A stretch of DNA of 64,000 nucleotides from Saprospiraceae bacterium (GCA_965247965.1 OZ252053.1:1710014-1774013), one strand, 5' to 3'; shown: positions 9,685 through 61,812, numbered from the stretch's first letter. The notes: generated by a model not told the origin, from the sequence alone. Translations and numbers: made by a program.

Positions 9685-9937
9685 GCAAATTCGTTTTAAT
9701 TCCCCGACGATGTTGTCAACGATTTTCTACTATCCAATTATTTTAATATTCTCAGTCCGCTGTTTACTGACACTGCTAGGCTAACAATTTAAACACTAAA
9801 ATAATATATGGCGGTTAACTATTTGTTAATTGGCCATTTAATAAGCTTCTATTCTAGAATAGGGCAAATGAGCCACGAATTCGCTTTGTAATTACACTTC
9901 ATATTATTATTTTACGCCATATTTAATTTTAGTTATT

Positions 9938-10348
9938 ATGGCAAAAAATACAAATCCGAGACTACCCGATCTTGATTTTGAAAAACTCAATGTTAAATCT
10001 GATGATTCTACTTCTTTGAAATTTTTAATGCTGGTAGAAGGTGCTTACGGACAGGGTGTGAAGAAAAGCATCAAGAAGTATGGTTATACAGAACAACGGT
10101 ATTACCAATTGTTGAACAAGTTCAAGGAAGATGGTATGGACGCTCTGATCAATCAGAAAAGAGGCCCAAAGAAAAATACTGTTCGTTCTGATAGGGTCAT
10201 CCACCAGATAATCAGACATCGTTTTCTCGATCCGCGAGCCAATAGTGATGTGATCGCCCAAAAGCTTAACCAACAGGGGATCAAAATCAGTAAACGAAGT
10301 GTGGAACGGACTATTCAGGAATATGGTCTTCAAAAAAAAACTCCATAA
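9938..10348 (+). CDS. IS orfA, an HTH-domain transposase accessory protein
   Basis: 136 aa, basic, helix-turn-helix-like. It overlaps orfB across the run aaaaaaaaa at 10326..10334. Confidence 0.6.
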   Translation: MAKNTNPRLPDLDFEKLNVKSDDSTSLKFLMLVEGAYGQGVKKSIKKYGYTEQRYYQLLNKFKEDGMDALINQKRGPKKNTVRSDRVIHQIIRHRFLDPRANSDVIAQKLNQQGIKISKRSVERTIQEYGLQKKTP

Positions 10349-11732
10349 GCTAAATCCCGATAGTCAAAAGCCAATACCTGTTACTGCCCAGCAGACCAAG
10401 AGGGTAAAAAAGAAGATCGTGGTTACCGAACAGAACAATGAACGGTTCATACGCGAAATGTTAGCTCGAAAGGTATCAGGCACTCATTTGGGTCTCTGGT
10501 TATTGATACCGGAATATCTACGACTTGGAGCCTGGGACTTGGTCTGCGGACTTTTCAATAAGCCCGAAGATCACAACCTTTCTGCCCGTATTGGCCTACA
10601 ATTGGTCAATGAAGCAGCAATTTGTCAAAACAGAGTCAGGAAAAGGAATGCTCTGTGCAATCAAGGTTTTGCCCTGGCAAATGGATTGTCCTTTTTGGTT
10701 ACTGACGAAACCATTCATGAGGTACTCGACCGCCATACGATGGCAGAATATGAATCCCTTCAAGTGACATTAAGGCAACTCAGAAATCTGCAAGGACATT
10801 ATGATCCACAAAATATCCTTGCTATTGATCCACACCGCATTCGGTCGTCCACTCAGCGCGTTATGCCAAAGAAGAAAAAAAGACCTTCAGAGCCTGCTCA
10901 CAAAATGCTACAGACTTTCTTCTGTAACGATGCTTTAACGGGACAGCCATTGGCTTTTACCGTTGGATCAAGCGGCAAAACATGCTCAAAGGCCACCTTA
11001 CAGTTGTTAGACCTATTGAAACAATCAGGGGTTGAAAAAGCATTAATAATGGCCGATAAAGAACATTTTACGGTCGATATATTAAACCACATTGTTGATA
11101 ATACCGAAATGGATCTTCTCTTGGCAGTCCCTAATACCAAAAGTGTTGTTCAATGTTTTAATTCATTGGACTATAAGCACCTCTGGGCAGGATATGCCAT
11201 TGGGCAAACTGATTATAAATTGAAAGCATGTCCACATCCTTTTAAACTTATTGTACAACGAACAGGAGAAATACCTCAATATTATTCCTACAAAGCTTTC
11301 TTATCCACTGTGGATAATAACGTAGTCCAATTACTCACTCAAAACTATCCAAAACGTTGGACTATCGAAGAGTTTTTCAATTTTGAAGGAGATATGGGTT
11401 GGAATCGTGCTTCTACCTTTAACCTCAATATCCGGTACGGGAAACAAAGTCTTGCTCTTATTGCACAAGCAGCTACACATCAATTGAAAAACAAACTACC
11501 AAAACCCTATAACCAATGGACTGCTACACACACCGCTACACAAATCCTTACCAATATGGAAGGTGATCTCAGAGTCAAGGACGACACCATCATTGTCACC
11601 TACTATCGGGACTATCTCAACCTTGGTATAGAAAAACATTACCAAAACTTGCCTCGAATCCTGGAACAGGAGGGAATTAATCCCAAAATACCTTGGCTAT
11701 TTGATTTTAAACTCGACTTTCGATTCAAATGA
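10299..11732 (+). CDS. IS orfB, a DDE transposase with an IS4-superfamily-type C-terminal motif (RWTIEEFF). It is probably expressed as an OrfAB fusion by -1 frameshifting
   Basis: 477 aa. The motif KRWTIEEFFNFEG resembles the RWxIExxF signature of IS4/IS5-superfamily transposases. Confidence 0.55.
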   Translation: MWNGLFRNMVFKKKLHKLNPDSQKPIPVTAQQTKRVKKKIVVTEQNNERFIREMLARKVSGTHLGLWLLIPEYLRLGAWDLVCGLFNKPEDHNLSARIGLQLVNEAAICQNRVRKRNALCNQGFALANGLSFLVTDETIHEVLDRHTMAEYESLQVTLRQLRNLQGHYDPQNILAIDPHRIRSSTQRVMPKKKKRPSEPAHKMLQTFFCNDALTGQPLAFTVGSSGKTCSKATLQLLDLLKQSGVEKALIMADKEHFTVDILNHIVDNTEMDLLLAVPNTKSVVQCFNSLDYKHLWAGYAIGQTDYKLKACPHPFKLIVQRTGEIPQYYSYKAFLSTVDNNVVQLLTQNYPKRWTIEEFFNFEGDMGWNRASTFNLNIRYGKQSLALIAQAATHQLKNKLPKPYNQWTATHTATQILTNMEGDLRVKDDTIIVTYYRDYLNLGIEKHYQNLPRILEQEGINPKIPWLFDFKLDFRFK

Positions 11733-11806
11733 CTAAAATAAATTTACCTTCAAAAATCGTTGACGATGTTGTCGGGACAAGCAGTGTAAATTCGTGGACC
11801 TCTAAA

Positions 11807-13015
11807 ATGAACTTTGATTTTAAGGATAAAAAAGTTCTTATCCGGGTGGATTTTAACGTCCCACTCGACGTAAATCTGAATGTCACTGACGATACCAGAA
11901 TAAGAAAGGCGCTACCAACAATTAATCACGTTTTGGATCATGGCGGCAGTGTAATCCTGATGTCTCATTTTGGTAGACCGCTTAAAAAGTTGAATGACGA
12001 TGGCAGTGTAAATTGTAAAAAATTTTCTCTGAAAAATATAACTAATCGCCTCTCTTCACTGCTGGAAAAAGAAGTACAATTTGTATCGGATACGGTTGGT
12101 GAAGAAGTCAAAATGCATACTGCCAATCTAAAACCAGGAGAGGTTCTTCTCCTGGAAAACACGAGATTTTACAATGAAGAAAAGAAGGGTGATAAAGGTT
12201 TTGCAAAACAGCTTTCGGAACTTGCAGATATCTATATCAACGATGCATTCGGAACCGCTCACCGCGCACATGCGTCTACAACTACGGTAGCTCATTATTT
12301 CCAAAAGGAGAATAAAAGTTTCGGGTTTTTGATGCAAGCCGAAATTGAAAATGCCGAGCGCGTTTTGAATTCTCCGGAAAGCCCGTTTATTGCAATATTG
12401 GGCGGAGCTAAAGTATCGGATAAGATACAACTCATCGAAAAGCTGTTGGACTTGTGCGACGACATCATCATCGGAGGAGGTATGAGTTATACTTTTTCAA
12501 AAGCTCTGGGAGGCAGTATAGGCAATTCGCTGTGCGAAGATGACTTCCAGGAATTGGCTCTAAGCGTTTTGGATAAGGCCGTTGCAAAGGGTGTAAATAT
12601 TCATTTACCTAAAGACACAGTAATCGCCGATGACTTCAGTAATGATGCCAATCGAAAAGTAGTCGATGCGGGCAGCATCCCCGATGGTTGGCAGGGGCTG
12701 GACATTGGACATGAGAGTGTAGACTATTTTAAGACTATCGTGTTGAATGCCAGGACTATCATTTGGAATGGTCCGCTTGGCGTATTCGAATTCGACAATT
12801 TTGCTGGTGGGACAAATTCTATTGCGGCAATAGTTGCAGAAGCTACCCAAAATGGAGCCTATTCTCTGATTGGTGGCGGTGATTCCGTTTCGGCAATAAA
12901 TAAGGCTGGCCTGGCCGATAAAGTCAGTTTTGTGTCAACAGGGGGTGGGGCGATGCTGGAATTTTTGGAAGGGAAGGAATTACCGGGGATTAGGGCGATT
13001 CGGGTTGATTCTTAG
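11807..13015 (+). CDS. pgk: Phosphoglycerate kinase
   Basis: The track ORF starts at 11729, but the PGK N-terminus (MNFDFKDKKVLIRVDFNVPLD) begins at the internal ATG at 11807. The upstream extension overlaps the IS end. Confidence 0.9.
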   Translation: MNFDFKDKKVLIRVDFNVPLDVNLNVTDDTRIRKALPTINHVLDHGGSVILMSHFGRPLKKLNDDGSVNCKKFSLKNITNRLSSLLEKEVQFVSDTVGEEVKMHTANLKPGEVLLLENTRFYNEEKKGDKGFAKQLSELADIYINDAFGTAHRAHASTTTVAHYFQKENKSFGFLMQAEIENAERVLNSPESPFIAILGGAKVSDKIQLIEKLLDLCDDIIIGGGMSYTFSKALGGSIGNSLCEDDFQELALSVLDKAVAKGVNIHLPKDTVIADDFSNDANRKVVDAGSIPDGWQGLDIGHESVDYFKTIVLNARTIIWNGPLGVFEFDNFAGGTNSIAAIVAEATQNGAYSLIGGGDSVSAINKAGLADKVSFVSTGGGAMLEFLEGKELPGIRAIRVDS

Positions 13016-13117: not shown

Positions 13118-15005
13118 ATCAAAGTTGAGTCCACTCCGATTACCACACATTTTTCAAGCGTACATTTGCCAGCTGCGGCCAAAACCCTGGAATTTTCTTA
13201 AGTGCAATATTGTTGCATAAGCATTCCTGAGGGTTGCGATGATGATATTTGGAAATCCGAGGGTATTTTCGACCAATTTATCGTTAATTCTTCTAAAATT
13301 CGTCCAAAGTACTCGTGACAGGACATAAATTTGACATTTGAATAAACCCCGATATAATATTTTGTTCCTTTTTTTGAGCCGGTGAAAACATTGATGTATG
13401 GTCGATTCCACATTGGCTCTTAGATTGTGGGTGTGCTCATCTAATGTTTCTTGCATCTGTTGAAATAAAAAATAGTTTTCTACTTCATCTTTGGTCATAT
13501 ACCGACCTCGGGTGTCGTGTTTAATGACGTATTTGTTGGTCTTCTCGTTAAACTTTACCGCGCACTGTTCTCCTGTCTTTTTTCGCCATACTTGAAGATT
13601 GTTATTCTCATCTCGTTTCATTGTATAGGCCTGCTTTCCCCCTTTTGTATTAGCTAACTTCCATTCGGGCGTGGTCGTTTCTGACATTGCTTTTCTGTTG
13701 GCCTTGCTGTCGTATCCGCCATCCGTGATGGCCTGTTCTATTTTATTCTTTTCTTGACCTGATTCATCCTTATCTGGATTTAATACATCCTGGATATGGT
13801 CGATAGATTCGATTAAAAACTCGTCTTCTGTAATATTGGCCGGTACTACCTGGGCATCTACGATTAGGTCTATTTCATTTTCTTCTGTACACGTTTCACT
13901 TATGTTGGCATGATAGCCCGATATGGTCTGTTTATTTTCTGCTTTACCTTTAGTACGGTAGGCAGCATCAGGATCATGAATGGACTGCACACTGCCACTC
14001 GATATGTCTCTTGCAGCTTTGGGTCTCGGAGTATTCTCCTGTTTAGTTTGCTGTTCAGATTCATCACAGACCGCGCTGATTTTTGTTTTATCATCAGAGG
14101 CACTCGGAGGTTTTTGCTCATTAGATTCCTCTGATTGTTCTTCATACTGTTCTTCGTAGAGCCGCTTGAGATCTTGGTAGCCTGTCAATCCCGCCGCCTG
14201 GCCATGACTCAAGAGTACCTTTATGATCTTACCCATACCTACTAGCAGTTCCTCTTTTTCTTTTTTGTTTAATGGGTAGACAATATTGGAGGCACTTTGG
14301 CTTTTTAGCTTTTCTAAAAGCTCGCATGATTCTTTATCCAATTGATCTGTAAGCAGTTCTACCATAAGGTCTTTACTGCATACTCGTACAGCTTCGATTA
14401 TCATCTGGACTCGAGTGCAGCGTGCAATATTGGAATTAATCAACTTCGAATCCAATCGTATTTTCTTACCGCTCACCTTGTATTGCTCTATCTGCCCAAT
14501 AGTGATTTGTTTAAATGCCGCCTTCATCAAATCCTCCCCATGGTCTTCATTATACTCTACCATGCTCTGTCTGAACTTATAGTAAGTCGATTCGGTCGGA
14601 ATATCCTCATTTATATTCGAATATCCCATAGCAAGCATGACCCTGGTGTTGAATCGACATTCATCAAAAAGTTGTTCATCAGTCCAACCTTTACCTTCTT
14701 TAAGGATAATCATTCCCATTAAAACTCTAATTGAGCAATTGGGCCGGCCTCCTTGATTATAAAGCACCTCGAACAATCCTTCGTCTATGCGAGATACCAC
14801 TTCTTTAAAAAATATATTATGCCAACCATTTGGATCATCCAGAAGCTCTCGCTTCCGTTCTGATAGCATCCCTCCTATCGATTTGAATAGATCAACTTGT
14901 GAATTTGTACTACGTTTAAACATATCACAAATTAAATATATATGTCATCTTATTGTAATATTTGACATGATTTATGATTTAGTTTTCGGAGTGGACTCAA
15001 AGTTG
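13118..15005 (-). mobile_element. IS1182-family insertion sequence, copy B, complete at ~1.89 kb with ~20 bp imperfect terminal IRs
   Basis: The reverse complement of the right end (caactttgagtccactccga) matches the left end (caaagttgagtccactccga at 13118..13137). Confidence 0.8.
13154..14923 (-). CDS. IS1182-family DDE transposase (589 aa)
   Basis: InsH-like N-terminal domain (GGRPNCSIRVLMGMIILKEGKGWTDEQL) and a C-terminal IS1182/IS5-type motif. Confidence 0.85.
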   Translation of the reverse strand: MFKRSTNSQVDLFKSIGGMLSERKRELLDDPNGWHNIFFKEVVSRIDEGLFEVLYNQGGRPNCSIRVLMGMIILKEGKGWTDEQLFDECRFNTRVMLAMGYSNINEDIPTESTYYKFRQSMVEYNEDHGEDLMKAAFKQITIGQIEQYKVSGKKIRLDSKLINSNIARCTRVQMIIEAVRVCSKDLMVELLTDQLDKESCELLEKLKSQSASNIVYPLNKKEKEELLVGMGKIIKVLLSHGQAAGLTGYQDLKRLYEEQYEEQSEESNEQKPPSASDDKTKISAVCDESEQQTKQENTPRPKAARDISSGSVQSIHDPDAAYRTKGKAENKQTISGYHANISETCTEENEIDLIVDAQVVPANITEDEFLIESIDHIQDVLNPDKDESGQEKNKIEQAITDGGYDSKANRKAMSETTTPEWKLANTKGGKQAYTMKRDENNNLQVWRKKTGEQCAVKFNEKTNKYVIKHDTRGRYMTKDEVENYFLFQQMQETLDEHTHNLRANVESTIHQCFHRLKKRNKILYRGLFKCQIYVLSRVLWTNFRRINDKLVENTLGFPNIIIATLRNAYATILHLRKFQGFGRSWQMYA

Positions 15006-33664: not shown

Positions 33665-33699
33665 ACAGTACAACAGTGTAACAATACAACAATGTACAT
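33665..33699. promoter_or_regulatory. Two inverted copies of the same 17-mer overlapping the paiB start codon (33692)
   Basis: The reverse complement of 33665..33699 is atgtacattgttgtattgttacactgttgtactgt. cattgttgtattg is identical to unit 1 of the left array. Confidence 0.55.
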
Positions 33700-34309
33700 C
33701 CCCCACTATTTTAACGATAGCACTCCAGAAGAAGTAAAAGAGTTCATAGACAAACACAGCTTTGGTACTCTTTTCAATCAAACTAAAGGAAAATATTGGG
33801 CTAGCCATATCCCCATGGAATTGGAAACAAATGAAGATGGTAAAGACATTTTGGTCGGTCACATTTCAAAAGGAAATCGGCAGTGGAAGGGATTTAAGGA
33901 AAGAGATGACGTGCTGGCGGTATTTCTGGGGCAGCACACCTATGTTTCATCCACCTGGTACAACCACGAAAACGTGCCGACTTGGAACTATATAGCCGTA
34001 CACGTCTACGGCAAAATAAAGATCATCGAAGAAGAGCGACTTCGCGATTCTCTGAAAAATCTTATGAATAAGTATGAGGCAATGACGCAAACGCACTTAA
34101 AATTAGAAGATCTGTCCGAAAAGATGGTCGATCGAGAGATCAAGGGAATCGTAGGATTTGAAATCTTGATCGACGAAGTACAGGCTGCCTTTAAGCTTTC
34201 GCAGAATCGGGATGAGGAGAGTTATGATAATGTGGTCGAAGAATTGTCAAAATCGGATGAAGAGAATGAAAAAGAGGTGGGGCGGATTATGGCAAAGCGG
34301 AGGGAATGA
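33692..34309 (+). CDS. paiB: PaiB-family FMN-binding transcriptional regulator
   Basis: 205 aa with an MYIPxHF N-terminus and the PaiB family fold pattern. Confidence 0.7.
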   Translation: MYIPHYFNDSTPEEVKEFIDKHSFGTLFNQTKGKYWASHIPMELETNEDGKDILVGHISKGNRQWKGFKERDDVLAVFLGQHTYVSSTWYNHENVPTWNYIAVHVYGKIKIIEEERLRDSLKNLMNKYEAMTQTHLKLEDLSEKMVDREIKGIVGFEILIDEVQAAFKLSQNRDEESYDNVVEELSKSDEENEKEVGRIMAKRRE

Positions 34310-34495
34310 CATTCCTCAGAACAGCGGCGTCCCTAGTGCTTTGTCAGATATGTTTTTAGAAACAATCAAAATGAAAACCTGTACTGAGTACGTCGAAGTA
34401 TGGAAATCAAAATAGTACAAAGCAGGTCGAAGTTTTTGATTGAATTTTTGATTTTGATTAAAAACTTTGTGAATATTCTAAATTTTGGCTTGGCA

Positions 34496-36000
34496 GAGCA
34501 CTAGTATGTGTTTAGCGTGCAATAATAGCTTGCCGATAGGATCTTGTGAGTATTTCCTCGAATGATTTACCTTGTTGAATAAAGGTTTGCATTAACGACA
34601 CGAGTGTTTGCCAAGTGTCAGCACCTTTGTCAGATCTGTTTCCACAGGATATTTTTCGAGATATGACCGCAGGCCTTAGCTGTCTTTCGGCCAAGTTATT
34701 TGTAGCGTCAACCTGATCGTAATCCATGAATGTGAATAGGTGATCTTTCTGTCTTGAAAATCTATTCAAAACCTTTATGGTACTTTCCTGAAATTCGATT
34801 GTTTGATCCTCTACTTGTTTTTTTATTTGTTCCAATTCTGGGATTAGATCGTCTGCTTGATTTTGAAGATGCTTAATAGCAGCTCGATATTGTTTATCTG
34901 TCACCTTATCTTTTGTCTTTTTTATAACCATTGCCGTTTTCAACATACTTTTTATTTGCTCCAACCGCACTTTATCTTTTTCTGAATCTTCTACAAATTG
35001 TTCGGCTGTTGAAATGGCCTTCAGATGATGGGAATAACATTTTTGTTGATCTTGGTTTACATCATCATAGATATTCAGACAATCACTCACCAGTACTCCT
35101 GCATAGTTTTCGCCTAATATGCTTTGTATTACCGCTCTTGCCCTTGATCGAATCACATGATATAAAGTCAGGTTTTTATTCGCAAATACCCACAACCAAT
35201 ACTTTGGATCAGATACGTACCAACTGGTTTCATCGGCATGAATGACATCCGATGTTCGCACCCTCTGCTTTAAATCTTCATAGGGTTCTTTAAGCACTTT
35301 GGCTGCTTTGTGCCCCATATGTACCAAGCCTCCGGGGCTTATTTTTATCCCGAATATCTTTTCCATCACAGCCACTGTTTTTCGCTTTGATAACCCGTAT
35401 TTATAGTTCAATTCCAAAGCTAAACTCCTTGCCATTGAGCCAATGTAGGTACTTGCTGCTCCTTTAGCATTGCTGATCTTGATCGGATGGTCGCTGCTCA
35501 CTACATTTTTACAATGGGTACATGTCCCTTGATATGTAATCAACTTTGTAACCTTTTTGGTGGCCTGGATTTCCTCCACTATTTGTTCTACCTGCTCAAC
35601 TTGTTCAAATTCATCGTGCTGGCATATTGGGCACTTTTCTAAGGGTGCATCCACCGTTTGGTCCACCTTGCCTTCAAATTTTCTAAAATAGCCTTTATGC
35701 CGGGGCTTGTTGCCTGGTCGTTTTTTATCCTTCTTCCTTTTCTTGTCTTCTATCCTGAATGGTGCGGCTTGTCGTTTGGAGGCTCGCTCAAGGGAAACTA
35801 TTTTGTCAAAAGCTAATTTCAACTCTTCTCTGAGTTCAGTAATTGTTTTACCTTGTTTTCGAACAAGTTCAATCAATTCTGATTTATCTAAGGACTCAAG
35901 AATGGATAAGTCCATCGTGCAGTTTCCTAATTTGAACACATATTACGAAAAATAATATGTATATCCAAATTACGCTAAACACATACGAGCACTAGTGCTC
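34496..36000 (-). mobile_element. IS66-family (single-ORF ISBst12-like) element. It is either 34506..35986 with a 10 bp TSD gagcactagt, or its IRs include that 10-mer
   Basis: IRs gagcactagtatgtgtttagcgtg (34496..34519) and tacgctaaacacatacgagcactagtgctc (35971..36000). Confidence 0.75.
34512..35915 (-). CDS. IS66-family transposase (TnpC-like)
   Basis: Zinc-finger Cys pairs (CPICQH, CTHCKN), ADETSW, and the C-terminal NNLAERQLRPAVISRK...G motif typical of IS66. Confidence 0.85.
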   Translation of the reverse strand: MDLSILESLDKSELIELVRKQGKTITELREELKLAFDKIVSLERASKRQAAPFRIEDKKRKKDKKRPGNKPRHKGYFRKFEGKVDQTVDAPLEKCPICQHDEFEQVEQVEQIVEEIQATKKVTKLITYQGTCTHCKNVVSSDHPIKISNAKGAASTYIGSMARSLALELNYKYGLSKRKTVAVMEKIFGIKISPGGLVHMGHKAAKVLKEPYEDLKQRVRTSDVIHADETSWYVSDPKYWLWVFANKNLTLYHVIRSRARAVIQSILGENYAGVLVSDCLNIYDDVNQDQQKCYSHHLKAISTAEQFVEDSEKDKVRLEQIKSMLKTAMVIKKTKDKVTDKQYRAAIKHLQNQADDLIPELEQIKKQVEDQTIEFQESTIKVLNRFSRQKDHLFTFMDYDQVDATNNLAERQLRPAVISRKISCGNRSDKGADTWQTLVSLMQTFIQQGKSFEEILTRSYRQAIIAR

Positions 36001-36156
36001 TGTAAAGTAAATTTCTACAGCTTATGGCGGCATCTTTTGAGCCAGCTCTTTGTTGCAAAGCCTCGCCGTAGCTTTGGCTATGGCTGCGTTTTGCGCCGCG
36101 ATCTGACTCAAAATCTGCTCCCCATAATTCAGAAGAACTTACTTTACAAAGCACTA
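35987..36156. repeat. MITE-like palindromic element (~180 bp) with ~25 bp TIRs, gagcactagtgctctgtaaagtaaa and tttactttacaaagcactagtgcctc. It has been hit by the IS66 element in its left TIR and by the IS630 element in its right TIR
   Basis: The reverse complement of 36131..36156 plus 37425..37433 is gaggcactagtgctttgtaaagtaa, which matches 35987..36011 at 24 of 25 positions. No ORF is present. Confidence 0.6.
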
Positions 36157-36289
36157 GTGTTCAGTCAAGCGCATAAATCTGGGTAAAAAGAATAAAGTAA
36201 CTTCGAATGTTGTTTTGCATAAAGATTAGAGTGACCACCTGATCAAAAAGAGAATATAGAGCCTTGATTAATGAACAAAAAAAAGAATC

Positions 36290-36760
36290 ATGGCAAAATT
36301 TTACAAAGTAACCTTAACCGAAGAAGAGCGTAGTGAATTAGAGCGAATAATAAGCATACCCAATAGTAAGTCAATTAGGACCAAGCGGAGTTATATATTA
36401 TTGGCCTCAGATGAGAATGGAGATAAGCATTGGACAGATAAAAAGATTCAAATTGCCTATGGAATGACGATAAATGGAATAGAGCGAATGCGAAAAAGAT
36501 TTGTGGAACACGGATTTGAAGCAGCGCTATATGGAAAGAAAAGAGAATATGTAAAAGAAAAGATATTTGACGGTCGGGTAGAAAGCCATTTACTATCCTT
36601 AAGATGTGAAGAAGTTCCTGATGGTCATTCAGGGTGGAGTTTACGATTATTGGCTGATAAGATGGTAGAATTGGAATATGTAGAAAGCATCAGTCATGAA
36701 TCTATACGGCAGATACTAAAAAAAACAAAATTAAACCCTGGCGAGTCAAAGGTTGGATAA
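36290..36760 (+). CDS. IS630-family transposase, N-terminal HTH part (orfA)
   Basis: 156 aa with HTH domains. It abuts orfB with a taATG overlap. Confidence 0.75.
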   Translation: MAKFYKVTLTEEERSELERIISIPNSKSIRTKRSYILLASDENGDKHWTDKKIQIAYGMTINGIERMRKRFVEHGFEAALYGKKREYVKEKIFDGRVESHLLSLRCEEVPDGHSGWSLRLLADKMVELEYVESISHESIRQILKKTKLNPGESKVG

Positions 36761-37416
36761 TGCCAAAGAAAGGAGCAGATTTTGTTCATAAAATGGAAGC
36801 GGTATTAGATGTATATGAACGACCATATGACCCGACTCATCCAGTAATCTGTTTAGATGAGTCCCCTAAACAGATCATAAGTGAAACAAAGAAAAGCTAT
36901 ATGGATTCAAAGGGTATATTACATCAAGACTATGAGTATAAAAGAGAAGGAGTAAAAAGTATGTACATGATCGTAGAACCCTTAGGAGAATACAGAGAAG
37001 TACATATTGAGGATAATCACAATAGTCAGACTTACGCAAAAATCATCATGAACTTAGTAGAAAAAACATATAGCGCTGCTAACAAAATCACATTGGTAGA
37101 GGACAATTTAAGTGCACATAAATTAAGTACCTTATATGAAATTATGCCTGCCCCCAGAGCCCGAAACATAGTGAAAAAGATAGAAGTTGTTCGCACACCG
37201 GCACATGCTTCCTGGCTCAATATTGCAGAATGTGAATTGAGCGTATTAACACGGTGTGGTTTGAAAAGTAGAATGTCAGATGAAGAACAACTCAAAAAAC
37301 AAACCAAAGCCTGGTATGGGTACAGAAACAAAAACCAAAAAGGAGTAGATTGGCAATTTACAACGAGTGATGCGCGCATTAAACTAAAAAATCTTTACCC
37401 AGACTATATAATTTGA
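36760..37416 (+). CDS. IS630-family transposase, DDE catalytic part (orfB)
   Basis: VICLDESPKQ...ASWLNIAECELSVL, a typical IS630 DDE/E region. Confidence 0.8.
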   Translation: MPKKGADFVHKMEAVLDVYERPYDPTHPVICLDESPKQIISETKKSYMDSKGILHQDYEYKREGVKSMYMIVEPLGEYREVHIEDNHNSQTYAKIIMNLVEKTYSAANKITLVEDNLSAHKLSTLYEIMPAPRARNIVKKIEVVRTPAHASWLNIAECELSVLTRCGLKSRMSDEEQLKKQTKAWYGYRNKNQKGVDWQFTTSDARIKLKNLYPDYII

Positions 37417-37449
37417 CTGAACACTAGTGCCTCAAGCAGAAAGTTTGGT

Positions 37450-37656
37450 ACTCCTAATTCGAAGCCTTACAGCCCTGAAAGGGCGTTAAGCAACGACATA
37501 GGGCAACGCCCTATGATTTACTAATCGCAGAACCAGCCCTGAAAGGGCGGAAGCAAGCTACTCATTGACGATCAATGATAGGTTTTATATTTAACATACT
37601 GAAGCTTTCGCCCTTACAGGGCTTGACCTTTGTCGATTCCAACAAAGGGCGCTCCC
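37450..37656. repeat. Cluster of GC-rich palindromic REP-like units (agccctgaaagggcg twice, cgcccttacagggct, caaagggcgc)
   Basis: agccctgaaagggcg at ~37472 and ~37534, with inverted partners nearby. Confidence 0.6.
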
Positions 37657-38979
37657 CCATACTACTGGACATGAGCTATAAATTGTGGTTCAAAGAATAG
37701 CCAAGAGGGTTTGGGGATAGAACGAATGGAATGAGAAAGAAAGCATATGAAATTTCTAAGGTTGTTGAATTTGATTTCTAAAAAGGATAGTCCTTTTTTA
37801 AATTTGGAAACGACTAAGTTGATCGATCCGTTTTTATATTTCTTCCAATCACTCTTCTTTTTGTGCTTGAGTTGGGTTAGACCCTGTTCAATACATAAGG
37901 CATAGATAAATACTACAATACCCATTGTCAATTCTATTTTTCCAGAGTCTTTAAAATTAAGAGCTTCTAAATTGAAACCATTTGATTTTAAGTGTTTGAA
38001 GCAAGTTTCAATAGTCCAACGAATAGGGTAAAGCTTTACTATTTTTCTTTTGTCTTTCAATGTAGATATGAAATAAAACAGAGGTTCGTTGGCTGAACTT
38101 TTGGGGTTTTTAAAAATCACAAAAGAAAATTTTTTTCCAAGGATTTCAATTTGTTTAGACACTCCACAGATTTGATACCGTTTTTTCAATGCTTCACGTT
38201 CAATACCAATGTATCGAAGATGTTGGTGTTTATAAAATGTCTTATCCTTTCCCCTTTGGTTGTCCACATACCCTTTATAAATTCCCTTTTTTAACCTAAT
38301 TACAAACTCTAACCCCTTGTTTACCAGATATTTAAACCATCTTTCTCCGATGTACTCCCGATCTGCTAGTAGTATCAAACCTTTCAGATTATATAATTTA
38401 CAGGCTTTGTCTATCACCTTTCGTCTTTCATTAAAATTACTCATACCCTTCTTGTCTAAGTCTTCCCACCATATTGGAATACTTACTCCATTGACCACTA
38501 CACTCAATGTTAATAAGTGAATATTCTTGTTGCCATTCTCCCAGCTCGTACCATCTAGTGCCAAATATTTGATGTTCTTCGCTTTGAGTCTCAACAAATA
38601 AAAACTAAAACATAATATAGCTTCAATCAATGCCTGCTTGTCAGCATCATCCATATTGAAAAAACGGATCAACCTCTTATAATTCGAATCAGGTTTGGTG
38701 TTTTGTTGGTTTTCGAGTATTCCAGGGAGCTTATCCTTTACAATGTTCAAATTCGTCGTCCTGGCTGATAATATACCTTGGGCTGTTGTGAGAAAATTTT
38801 TTATTACATGTTCTTCAAAACCTGAGAAAAATGGTTTTATTTCGCTTACGAGTGGAATTGTCATTGTTGTTAATTGTTTGTTTTACAAACAATAATGATA
38901 TATTCCACTTTATTATAATATATAACCTACTTTATTTCAAGACATTGTATTATTTTAACCCCAATGTCCAGTAGTATGG
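37657..38979 (-). mobile_element. IS4-family element with 16 bp IRs (ccatactactggacat / atgtccagtagtatgg), flanked by a 10 bp TSD with one mismatch (ggcgctcccc / ggcgctgccc). It is inserted in a REP-like hairpin
   Basis: IRs at 37657..37672 and 38964..38979. The reconstructed target caaagggcgctgccctttg is a hairpin. Confidence 0.8.
37662..38864 (-). CDS. IS4-family DDE transposase
   Basis: LALDGTSWE, ADREY and RWTIETCFKHLKS, which are the IS4 DDE_Tnp_1 signatures. Confidence 0.85.
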   Translation of the reverse strand: MTIPLVSEIKPFFSGFEEHVIKNFLTTAQGILSARTTNLNIVKDKLPGILENQQNTKPDSNYKRLIRFFNMDDADKQALIEAILCFSFYLLRLKAKNIKYLALDGTSWENGNKNIHLLTLSVVVNGVSIPIWWEDLDKKGMSNFNERRKVIDKACKLYNLKGLILLADREYIGERWFKYLVNKGLEFVIRLKKGIYKGYVDNQRGKDKTFYKHQHLRYIGIEREALKKRYQICGVSKQIEILGKKFSFVIFKNPKSSANEPLFYFISTLKDKRKIVKLYPIRWTIETCFKHLKSNGFNLEALNFKDSGKIELTMGIVVFIYALCIEQGLTQLKHKKKSDWKKYKNGSINLVVSKFKKGLSFLEIKFNNLRNFICFLSHSIRSIPKPSWLFFEPQFIAHVQ

Positions 38980-39060
38980 CGCTGCCCTTTGCTTTTGCTG
39001 TAAGCCCTTAAGGCTTAATCTGTTAGCACAACTAAACCGCTTATTAAGTCTTTGGAGTAT

Positions 39061-39846
39061 CTAATTTGGTGCACTAGTTAGGACATCTTTTCTTTTCCTA
39101 TCCAGCACTCCCGCAATCCCAACAATAGCAAGCAACAAAGTAAGCACGATCAATCCCCATTGACCTAGGGTAGGTACAGCCGGGTTACGCTGAATCGTCA
39201 CACTGAAGACTATATCGAGAGTTGCGTCATCGACACCATTACCACTAAAAACATTAGTACCGGCCAGGATATCACCGTTATTAAAGCGCATACTAAACCT
39301 GGCAGGGAAACCCTCTTCTGCGAGGGAAATGGCGTATTGAGTACCGTTAGTAACAGGAAAAGGCGTGGTCAATGGAATGTTTATAACCCCTGCTCCTGTA
39401 ATGGCAACCGTTTGCGTATAGCCGCCGCCATTTGTATTCATTCCGGTAGAAATAGTTAAAACCGTATTGCCGGCAATTGTTACACCACCTATTTCAAAAC
39501 AAACGGCCGTAATATTTCCATCACCACATGCGAGAAAAGTTTGTCCGACTTCTCTATTTGCCGCACCAAGTGCGGGCGCTGTAGCGTCGGAGGTTGGCTG
39601 GTCGATCATGCAATCCTGGGAGATCAGCCTTGAGGGAAGAAAAACAAAACAAAAAATGAGGATGGGCGCAACAAAAAAACCTAGAGCTTTAGTCCGTAGT
39701 CCGTAGTCCGTAGTCAAAATGTCTGGTCTTTCAAAATGGTTCACAATGGTGACTTTAAAACTTCTTGAGGAGGAGGAGGTTTTCACGATGTGGTATTTTA
39801 TATTTTCATGGAATAGTCGTGTACGGTTTTCTTGTCTGGGGCACAA
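39061..39846 (-). CDS. IPTL-CTERM sorting-domain surface protein. The 5' end is unclear: there is no in-frame start before the hydrophobic signal-like segment, so it is possibly disrupted or phase-variable
   Basis: C-terminal VPTLGQWGLIVLTLLLAIVGIAG followed by a basic tail matches the IPTL-CTERM signal. A Gly/Thr-rich beta-rich body precedes it. Confidence 0.6.
   Translation of the reverse strand: MCPRQENRTRLFHENIKYHIVKTSSSSRSFKVTIVNHFERPDILTTDYGLRTKALGFFVAPILIFCFVFLPSRLISQDCMIDQPTSDATAPALGAANREVGQTFLACGDGNITAVCFEIGGVTIAGNTVLTISTGMNTNGGGYTQTVAITGAGVINIPLTTPFPVTNGTQYAISLAEEGFPARFSMRFNNGDILAGTNVFSGNGVDDATLDIVFSVTIQRNPAVPTLGQWGLIVLTLLLAIVGIAGVLDRKRKDVLTSAPN
39691..39716. repeat. Heptamer tandem repeat (tagtccg) of 3.7 units in the 5' region of the IPTL-CTERM gene
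   Basis: tagtccgtagtccgtagtccgtagtc. Confidence 0.85.
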
Positions 39847-55810: not shown

Positions 55811-55880
55811 GTTATGCCTTTGGCATAAACGTTCGACAATGATGTGAATTTTGGTAGCCACACCCGCCTGCCGTCGGGCA

Positions 55881-55949
55881 GGGATTACACGAATTACACA
55901 GATTGTTTGCCTACGGCAATAATCCGTGTGCATCTGTGAAATCTGTGGC
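55881..55949. repeat. ~70 bp interspersed repeat (ggattacacgaattacacagatt...ccgtgtgcatctgtgaaatctgtggc) with internal inverted symmetry. A homologous copy lies at 61733..61812
   Basis: Aligns by eye with 61735..61810. gattacacagatt and aatctgtgaaatc are reverse-complementary arms. Confidence 0.75.
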
Positions 55950-61667: not shown

Positions 61668-61732
61668 GAAACCACGGAGAAATTATTAGTAAAAACAGGA
61701 AACGCGAAGTAAAAGTGATAAAGGTTTTGACC

Positions 61733-61812
61733 ACGGATTACACAGATTACACAGATTATTGCGGTAGGCAATTAATCCGCTCCATCCGTGAAATCTGTGA
61801 AATCTGTAGCTA
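61733..61812. repeat. Second copy of the ~70 to 80 bp repeat (gattacaca x2 ... ccgtgaaatctgtgaaatctgtagc), in the mraY-murD spacer
   Basis: Homologous to 55881..55949. It contains the 9-mer tandem gattacaca gattacaca. Confidence 0.75.

Follow-up and report, generated by a model that had tools for sequence, protein, structure and literature searches.

A probable stack of IS630-type mobile elements joined at palindromic TA sites between two convergent genes of a Saprospiraceae bacterium

Introduction

Insertion sequences (IS) of the IS630 family insert at TA and duplicate it (PMC2170065), and IS630 itself prefers a TA within CTAG (Tenzen and Ohtsubo 1991, cited in PMC2170065). The closest known case to the locus described below, an array of mobile elements in a Saprospiraceae bacterium, is that of RUP and IS630-Spn1 in Streptococcus pneumoniae (Oggioni and Claverys 1999, via PMC2229807); as summarized in the latter source, RUP is a short, non-coding element of 107 bp with IS630-like inverted ends that inserts at TA and shows a preference for positions within or beside other IS. 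Among IS66-family elements, a member of the ISBst12 group makes an 8-bp direct repeat (PMC12898284). A survey of IS that target palindromes names members of the IS3, IS110, IS4, IS256, and IS5 families and does not list IS66 (PMC1525189). Here, we analyze a stretch of 64,000 nucleotides from this bacterium (GCA_965247965.1 OZ252053.1:1710014-1774013; the window, below), in which a 4.7-kb gap between two convergent genes contains three transposase-bearing elements, of the IS66, IS630, and IS4 families.

A preliminary description of the window placed the IS66 and IS630 elements in the two arms of a single miniature inverted-repeat transposable element (MITE). We find that cut-and-paste elements of the IS630/Tc1-mariner type have very probably piled up in this gap. 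From left to right, the order is most likely TA, M1 (a candidate element), TA, M2 (a proven MITE), TA, the IS630 element, TA, M3 (a second candidate), and TA.

Results

Five CTAG junctions share one build

When all CTAG sites of the window are listed, five consecutive ones prove to have a common build (junctions 1 to 5; Table 1). Each TA-to-TA segment starts with GTG and ends with CAC, and the junctions between segments read CAC-TA-GTG. The IS630 copy is one such GTG...CAC segment, with an end (GTGTTCAGTCAAG) that resembles the MITE end GTGCTCTGTAAAG. This shared build suggests that the palindromes are joints of abutting IS630-type elements rather than the inverted repeat of one element. A junction palindrome forms wherever two GTG...CAC elements have a TA in common and is not a motif of one MITE.

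The 8-base palindrome CACTAGTG occurs 3 times in the 64 kb (0.36 expected), each time at an element junction. The recurrence of gcactagt noted in the preliminary description is real, at 39071-39078 rather than 39069-39076. Being palindromic and over-represented in the window, CACTAGTG or GCACTAGTGC might be taken for a host motif (REP-like, protein-binding, or restriction-related, as in ACTAGT) that happens to coincide with IS ends. To this reading we give hardly any credence. Unlike free-standing palindromes of the repetitive extragenic palindrome (REP) or bacterial interspersed mosaic element (BIME) type, the two sequences are found in the window at element junctions only, and the motif occurs 0 times in the remaining ~59 kb. 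In the ten metagenome loci with further copies of the IS630 element (L109 to L118, below), the occurrences are likewise junctions, except for one at position 589 of L110/L111; that site lies just upstream of a neighboring DDE_Tnp_1 gene and looks like the other end of that element.

M2 is a mobile MITE with an intact outline

The segment to the left of the IS630 copy, M2, is a genuine mobile MITE of 160 bp, intact from GTG to CAC, because a TA-bounded, near-identical copy exists at another locus. This second copy (L114, 3168-3327) is 159/160 identical, lies in reverse orientation among unrelated genes, and has TA on both sides with unique DNA beyond on its outer side. Among the window and the fetched loci, M2 was seen in two copies, those of the window and L114. 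The terminal repeats match at 15/17 positions, and the element folds at -32.8 kcal/mol (z = -4.7), with 0/200 shuffles folding as well.

The preliminary description had drawn a larger element of ~180 bp, hit by IS66 in its left terminal inverted repeat and by IS630 in its right one. It was right that a MITE is present, without open reading frames (ORFs) and hairpin-like; the element is shorter and was not "hit twice." Such a ~180-bp MITE would have inverted repeats including GAGCACTAGTGCTC... and ...GCACTAGTGCCTC, with both IS inside the repeats and a 10-bp IS66 duplication. Its arms do pair over 27 nt at 89% when flanking bases are included, and GAGCACTAGT stands at both IS66 ends. However, the L114 copy of M2 has its boundaries precisely at GTG and CAC, beyond which come TA and unrelated DNA; autonomous elements that carry the M2 repeat also begin at GTG after TA; beyond CAC and one G, the outer bases stop matching; and relatives of the IS66 element place its start at GTATG, which leaves an 8-bp duplication. 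We therefore regard a single ~180-bp MITE as highly improbable. The outer 8 to 9 bases assigned to its repeat lie outside M2 and belong to the neighbors, and the IS630 copy occupies the flanking TA, such that the two elements abut. Anchored at TA, the arms match at 21/25 positions ungapped and at 23/25 when one indel is allowed, not at the reported 24/25; the right arm, given as tttactttac, actually reads cTTACTTTACAAAGCAC.

The M2 repeat is shared with autonomous IS630-family elements. It is identical to the ends of those in L002, L092, and L040, with 22/22 bases identical to the L092 IS end. Genome and metagenome scans with the repeat gave 13 loci encoding IS630-type transposases with the same repeat; these transposases are 28 to 52% identical to the window ORFs, a short L072 fragment excepted. 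Carriers of the repeat include L002, L040, L042, L058, and L088, which all code for IS630 transposases; in these five loci and in L061, L062, and L092, it starts at GTGC straight after TA, with variable bases before the TA. L048 carries a 161-bp MITE with terminal repeats identical to those of M2, set in gatC-TA-Gtca. The scan of the genome collection alone gave only 14 single matches, approximately the number estimated for chance, although L002 proved useful as an autonomous element with the M2 repeat; a scan of viral contigs with the M2 core found nothing. The adjacent IS630 copy and M2 agree at 10 of their first 13 terminal bases. From these sequence matches, the transposase that moves M2 probably comes from an IS630 relative with the GTGCTCTGTAAAGTAA repeat and not from the neighboring copy. 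We also considered CTAG as the 4-bp duplication of an IS5-type element and rejected it, since elements with the M2 repeat also lie in gTA...TAc and other non-CTAG contexts.

The IS630 element targets a mirror of its own ends

Pfam bears out the family calls of the preliminary description for both IS. The IS630 copy encodes a DDE transposase (DDE_3, E = 7e-18) with an N-terminal helix-turn-helix (HTH_32, E = 4e-13), and its terminal repeat GTGTTCAGTCAA matches at 12/12 positions. Two ORFs, which overlap at an A8C run at 36718, encode the transposase in separate parts. A -1 slip in this run would give the usual ...LKKNKIKPWR... continuation; the run fits a -1 frameshift that would fuse ORF1 and ORF2. 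Because 11 copies of the element retain the split at A8C, it looks like programmed frameshifting rather than decay. The same A-run is present in a distant IS630 relative in L002 (around 1640).

A homology search with ORF2 (best match P0241) led to ten further copies in metagenome contigs. The eleven copies differ at ≤2 positions per 1268 nt, and each has TA on both sides. To the left of the TA, the 11 sites have C at -3 (10/11), A at -2 (11/11), and C at -1 (11/11); to its right, they have G at +1 (11/11), T at +2 (10/11), and G at +3 (8/11). All 11 sites thus show the CTAG preference, with C at -1 and G at +1, and the consensus widens to CACTAGTG, its left half (CAC) being stricter than its right half (GTG). 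The target of this IS630 element is CAC-TA-GTG, the mirror of its own GTG...CAC ends. In the window, as the preliminary description had it, the IS630 copy has a TA at each end within CACTAGTG, and the check which that description proposed, whether other copies occupy the same motif, finds all eleven copies in CAC-TA-GTG-like sites. A scan of viral contigs with the IS630 end found nothing, and a more distant relative, P0358, adds little, giving a single insertion site that recurs across many samples and has a CTAG core and unclear ends.

Most of the eleven copies adjoin another element, mostly the end of a MITE. Different MITEs abut the copies in L112, L113, L114, L115, L116, and L118, and an IS end adjoins those in L110 and L111; the copies in L109 and L117 have no recognizable MITE alongside. 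L114 holds a three-element array of MITE, IS630, and M2 that resembles the array in the window. In L113, a gene is interrupted by a 162-bp MITE and the IS630 copy, and removing both together with two extra TAs restores the reading frame (...NKDYISKA-SITLKELKETRVNLKIL across aaaGCTAGTatt), which shows two insertions, or one composite insertion, into a single CTAG. Abutting pairs also occur among distant relatives, as MITE-IS in L073, IS with a 93-bp MITE in L040, and IS-IS in L092; in L083, an IS with a window-like repeat adjoins a 126-bp MITE with an M2-type repeat.

The neighbors are not evenly placed. Among L109 to L118, a MITE or the end of another element lies only at the left (ORF1-proximal) end of the IS630 copy in seven loci and only at the right end in 0, a bias in keeping with the consensus, whose left half is the stricter. 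MITE-IS630 pairs might also be composite units that move jointly by the outer end of the MITE and the far end of the IS630 element. MITEs do lie at the left IS630 end in the window, L112, L113, L114, L115, and L116 (L118 also has one on the right), and the insertion of a composite would likewise leave three TAs. This is improbable, as the MITEs found beside the near-identical IS630 copies comprise at least five different sequences and orientations, M2 is at the left IS630 end in the window and at the right end in L114, and the copies in L109 and L117 stand without a recognizable MITE.

Further arrangements were seen at these loci. L110 and L111 have their left neighbor in common and differ in their right flanks; CACTAGTG sites at 589 and 1893 bracket the DDE_Tnp_1 gene beside their IS630 copy, and the stretch (about 589-1895) may be an element of another transposase family with junctions of the GTG...CAC/TA style. 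In L092, a 1.2-kb contig, two full IS630 relatives lie head to tail via CAC-TA-GTG (around 860-892), a joint that could be a tandem dimer, the junction of an excised circle, or an assembly artifact. L115 contains another multi-element nest (about 1800-1897): the MITE abutting its IS630 copy is itself incomplete, cut off by the terminus (...GTACGCTTAC) of a canonical three-gene IS66 element.

The IS66 element lies in a palindrome at a probable element junction

The IS66 element has an inverted repeat, GTATGTGTTTAGCGT, that matches at 15/15 positions. At 1483 bp, it leaves no room for TnpA or TnpB, and the transposase is its sole ORF. GAGCACTAGT is indeed present at both ends (34496-34505 and 35987-35996), from which a 10-bp duplication had been read. 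To locate the true ends, we compared relatives fetched via their proteins (68%, 57%, 55%, and 45% amino acid identity). All of them end GTATGTGTTTAGCG (GTACGTG in one group) ... CGCTAAACACATAC beside unrelated flanks, and several of their contigs start exactly at GTATG. Because these termini are kept beside unrelated flanks, the element starts at 34504 and its duplication is 8 bp (GAGCACTA). The extra GT that follows the 8 bp is the IS start on the left (GTATGTG...) and the MITE start on the right, and GAGCACTAGT as a whole is not part of the IS66 inverted repeat.

The IS66 element therefore sits in the perfect 14-bp palindrome GAGCAC-TA-GTGCTC at the M1/M2 junction and not in the left arm of M2, its duplication consisting of the last 6 bp of the neighbor plus the shared TA. 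Hairpins also mark the sites of its relatives. A perfect hairpin of at least 5 bp starting exactly at the IS boundary is found at 9/15 flanks, against a background of 0.8% (binomial p ~6e-16), and there are more examples besides these. Among the hairpins touched by the IS ends are TTTGC-TTC-GCAAA, GCAGC-TCC-GCTGC, TCCGC-TCC-GCGGA, CCGGTT-TCA-AACCGG, and TCTCC-AAA-GGAGA. The relatives come from loci L097-L108 and L119-L128; in one metagenome series, the hairpin is a repeated CCCTCTCC-AAA-GGAGAGGG unit. These flanks suggest that the IS66 subgroup targets palindromes or REPs, and the element probably recognizes a hairpin-forming shape, which we treat as a lead. The earlier proposal that one palindrome serves two IS families is plausible as a preferred site for both, given the CAC-TA-GTG-like IS630 sites and the hairpins adjoining IS66 relatives; the motif does not belong to one MITE.

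Two other observations concern these relatives. In L101 (around 304 and 2216), the IS is flanked on both sides by a whole 13-bp hairpin, TCCGCTCCGCGGA, inside a 23-bp palindrome, which would imply a duplication of 13 bp and not 8; in L097, L123, and L128, the two flanks are inverted rather than direct copies. Either could be an assembly effect.

M1 and M3 are candidate elements

Outside M2 and the IS630 copy lie M1 and M3, both unproven. All four outer boundaries read TA-GTGC or GCAC-TA. The ends of M1 pair over 11 bp, with 9 of the first 11 positions and 14/24 overall matching in its terminal inverted repeat, and its fold has a z of only -1.2. M3 has a terminal repeat of only 11/28 and is strongly structured (fold z = -5.75); its ends resemble those of the GTGCRCCAAGCACTAA MITE family adjoining IS630 copies in L112, L116, and L118.

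M3 itself contains an IS4-family element, assigned from its Pfam domain only (DDE_Tnp_1, E = 2e-17), with a perfect inverted repeat of 16 nt. Its flanking 9-mers, GCGCTCCCC and GCGCTGCCC, match at 8/9, with one base different. Removing the element together with one 9-bp flank (37649-38987) restores CAAAGGGC-GCT-GCCCTTTG followed by CTTTTG, a terminator-like hairpin.

It is conceivable that M2 and the IS630 copy alone were inserted and that M1, M3, or both are native DNA with a C-TA-GTG site, in which case the stack would be two deep and not four. No second copy of M1 or M3 was found in the window, 134 fetched loci, or viral scans; the fold of M1 is ordinary and the terminal repeat of M3 weak; and M3 both includes a terminator-like hairpin and contains the final codons of the IPTL-CTERM ORF. 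BLAST searches with M1 and M3 gave no significant similarity, either to any of the fetched loci or to the MITEs that neighbor other IS630 copies, and viral-contig scans with the M1 end and the M3 hairpins found nothing. Against a shallower stack stand the uniform outer boundaries, the 11-bp pairing of the M1 ends, and the likeness of the M3 ends to a MITE family beside the same IS630 elsewhere. Further, the outermost flanks join into a plausible target, cCTAGTt. We consider native origin rather unlikely overall. M1 is likely a decayed element, and we lean, somewhat less firmly, toward the same view of M3, which is possibly native intergenic DNA.

Small GCCCT-NNN-AGGGC hairpins are repeated within M3 (37470-37485, 37534-37549, and 37604-37623), and CAGCCCTGAAAGGGCG occurs there twice plus once as an inverted copy, which may represent a further nested small repeat.

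Coordinates, neighboring genes, and other repeats

The features of the locus are collected in Table 1.

Table 1. Elements, junctions, and neighboring genes of the array, in window coordinates
Feature	Position	Strand	Description
FMN-binding protein gene (FMN_bind_2)	33692-34309	+	Left neighbor; stop at 34309
Outermost left TA	34334..34335	.	Context gtcccTAgtgc; left half of presumed original C-TA-G target; from CTAG listing
M1, candidate IS630-type MITE, 166 bp, unproven	34336..34501	.	Ends GTGCTTTGTCAG... / ...GGCAGAGCAC; TA on both sides
IS66 duplication, left copy, 8 bp	34496..34503	.	GAGCACTA; last 6 bp of M1 plus shared TA
IS66-family IS, single ORF (ISBst12-like), 1483 bp	34504..35986	-	Pfam DDE_Tnp_IS66, E = 5e-40
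IS66 transposase	34512-35915 (ATG start) or 34512-35939 (GTG start)	-	Translation
IS66 duplication, right copy, 8 bp	35987..35994	.	GAGCACTA; last two bases, 35993-35994, are the TA common to M1 and M2
M2, IS630-type MITE, 160 bp	35995..36154	.	Terminal repeats GTGCTCTGTAAAGTAAA and GTGCTTTGTAAAGTAAG; hairpin-like, ORF-free interior
TA common to M2 and IS630 copy	36155..36156	.	
IS630-family IS, 1268 bp	36157..37424	+	Pfam HTH_32 and DDE_3; translation; TA-flanked
IS630 ORF1 (HTH)	36290-36760		
IS630 ORF2 (DDE)	36760-37416		
TA right of IS630 copy	37425..37426	.	
M3, candidate, 318 bp without IS4 insert, unproven	37427..39074	.	Ends GTGCCTCAAGCAG... / ...TTTGGTGCAC
IS4-family IS, 1321 bp	37658..38978	-	Inverted repeat CATACTACTGGACAT; transposase 37662-38864; inside M3
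Outermost right TA	39075..39076	.	Context ggtgcacTAgttagg; right half of presumed original target; from CTAG listing
IPTL-CTERM protein ORF	39061-39846	-	Right neighbor; ends near 39061
Junction 1	34333		gtccC-TA-GTGCTTTG
Junction 2	34501/35992, after IS66 removal		GGCAGAGCAC-TA-GTGCTCTG
Junction 3	36154		CAAAGCAC-TA-GTGTTCAG
Junction 4	37424		CTGAACAC-TA-GTGCCTCA
Junction 5	39074		TTGGTGCAC-TA-Gttagg

The IPTL-CTERM ORF runs 8 codons beyond its basic RKRK cluster (DVLTSAPN*; 39061-39100). These last codons fall within the putative M3 end, and the natural C terminus may have been changed by insertion. Promoter and terminator scans gave counts at shuffle level. A search of Rfam found no family above threshold; two sub-threshold matches, to Acido-Lenti-1 (24 bits, with 37 needed) and to a microRNA model, were taken as chance, and the former overlaps one of the GCCCT-NNN-AGGGC hairpins of M3. 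No benefit or function for the host is indicated.

The window contains at least six IS copies. A 1566-bp direct repeat, 99.9% identical, occurs at 1-1566 (cut by the window start) and at 13440-15005, covering a 589-aa transposase (DUF772 and DDE_Tnp_1; 13154-14923, minus strand). Inverted repeats of 43 nt (72% complementary) at 9703-11776 surround a 477-aa DDE_Tnp_1 ORF (10299-11732) directly upstream of pgk (11729-13015), probably another IS. A repeat of ~70 bp with GATTACACAGATTACACAGATT-like units is present in two intergenic copies, ~75% identical, at 55879-55947 and 61732-61799.

Discussion

The junctions suggest how such an array could grow. Before any insertion, the site would read ...gtcccTAgttagg..., the two outermost TA contexts each holding half of it. 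An IS630 element inserting at the TA of CACTAGTG would yield cac-TA-GTG...CAC-TA-gtg, in which the site is duplicated and not destroyed. By the same logic, any GTG...CAC element with its duplicated TA would rebuild at least a half site on each side, and a whole site when it lands in a full one. Each insertion would make new preferred targets, and elements would build up end to end, because GTG...CAC ends together with TA duplication recreate the IS630 target. Later, the single-ORF IS66 element would have entered the 14-bp palindrome at the M1/M2 junction with its 8-bp duplication, likely attracted by the palindromic shape, as its relatives habitually adjoin short hairpins; the IS4-family element would have entered the hairpin inside M3, also later.

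As a whole, we hold this account of stacked elements with target regeneration to be very likely. Several points weigh against it. Static sequence does not reveal the insertion order or which element selected which. The left-end bias of the MITEs might alternatively reflect composite MITE-IS630 units. For M1, no second copy was found, the terminal repeat is weak, and the fold is unremarkable; M3 is likewise without a second copy, its terminal repeat matches poorly, and if it is an insertion, then the IPTL-CTERM ORF was once ~15 codons longer and overlapped the end of the FMN gene, which counts mildly against M3 as an insertion. The 15 IS66 flanks are not all independent, some coming from short contigs with repeated flanks that may be mis-joined.

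Tentatively, and with rather less than even confidence, we propose that mobile elements build each other's landing sites and that the junction palindromes then attract a hairpin-seeking, single-ORF subgroup of IS66. If this is true, then IS "nests" grow through target creation encoded in the sequence and not only through the harmlessness of insertions there, with a clustering rule: element ends mimic the target. The region is both a graveyard and a landing pad between two convergent genes. If confirmed, a widespread single-ORF IS66 subgroup would join the palindrome-targeting IS, with a bearing on the poorly understood IS66 mechanism. For annotation, palindromes of the CACTAGTG type in IS-rich genomes would be read as joints of stacked TA-targeting elements and not as the repeats of single elements.

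The elements themselves belong to the IS630 family, the IS630-derived MITEs, and the ISBst12 group of IS66, as new members of known families; the targeting logic is modestly novel. TA-targeting plant MITEs of the Stowaway type, derived from Tc1/mariner elements, reportedly favor other MITEs, or sites next to them, for insertion and form clusters (Jiang and Wessler 2001). Apart from the eukaryotic setting of those clusters, what we propose for the window differs in that a specific 8-bp palindrome would be regenerated at each junction.

Like IS630 of Shigella sonnei and ISY100 of Synechocystis, the IS630 element of the window has a DDE transposase with an N-terminal helix-turn-helix and short inverted repeats, is of the kind that moves by cut-and-paste into TA with TA duplication, and shares their CTAG preference (PMC2170065). 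It differs in its 11-site consensus, which extends to CAC-TA-GTG and mirrors its own termini, and in the division of its transposase into two ORFs across the A8C run, suggesting a -1 frameshift. The IS66 element resembles members of the ISBst12 group such as ISDge4 in that its single ORF (~450-475 aa) is not accompanied by TnpA or TnpB, its inverted repeats begin with GTA or GTG as in that group, and its direct repeat is 8 bp long (PMC12898284). Its termini are GTATGTGTTTAGCG, and no hairpin preference is reported for ISDge4. The REP-targeting elements IS1397, ISPa11, ISPpu9/10, and ISRm22 insert at short repeated palindromes (PMC1525189), much as the IS66 relatives lie at hairpins, whereas the palindrome in the window is the junction of two mobile elements and not a host REP.

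The likeness to RUP and IS630-Spn1 is the closest. M2 shares with RUP, as the latter is presented in PMC2229807, its short non-coding form, IS630-like inverted ends, and insertion at TA, and at 160 bp it is the longer of the two. Unlike what that account gives for RUP, the elements of the window abut end to end via a shared TA in an 8-bp palindrome rather than inserting into transposase genes, and the repeat of M2 fits IS630 relatives of other organisms better than it fits the IS630 element beside it.

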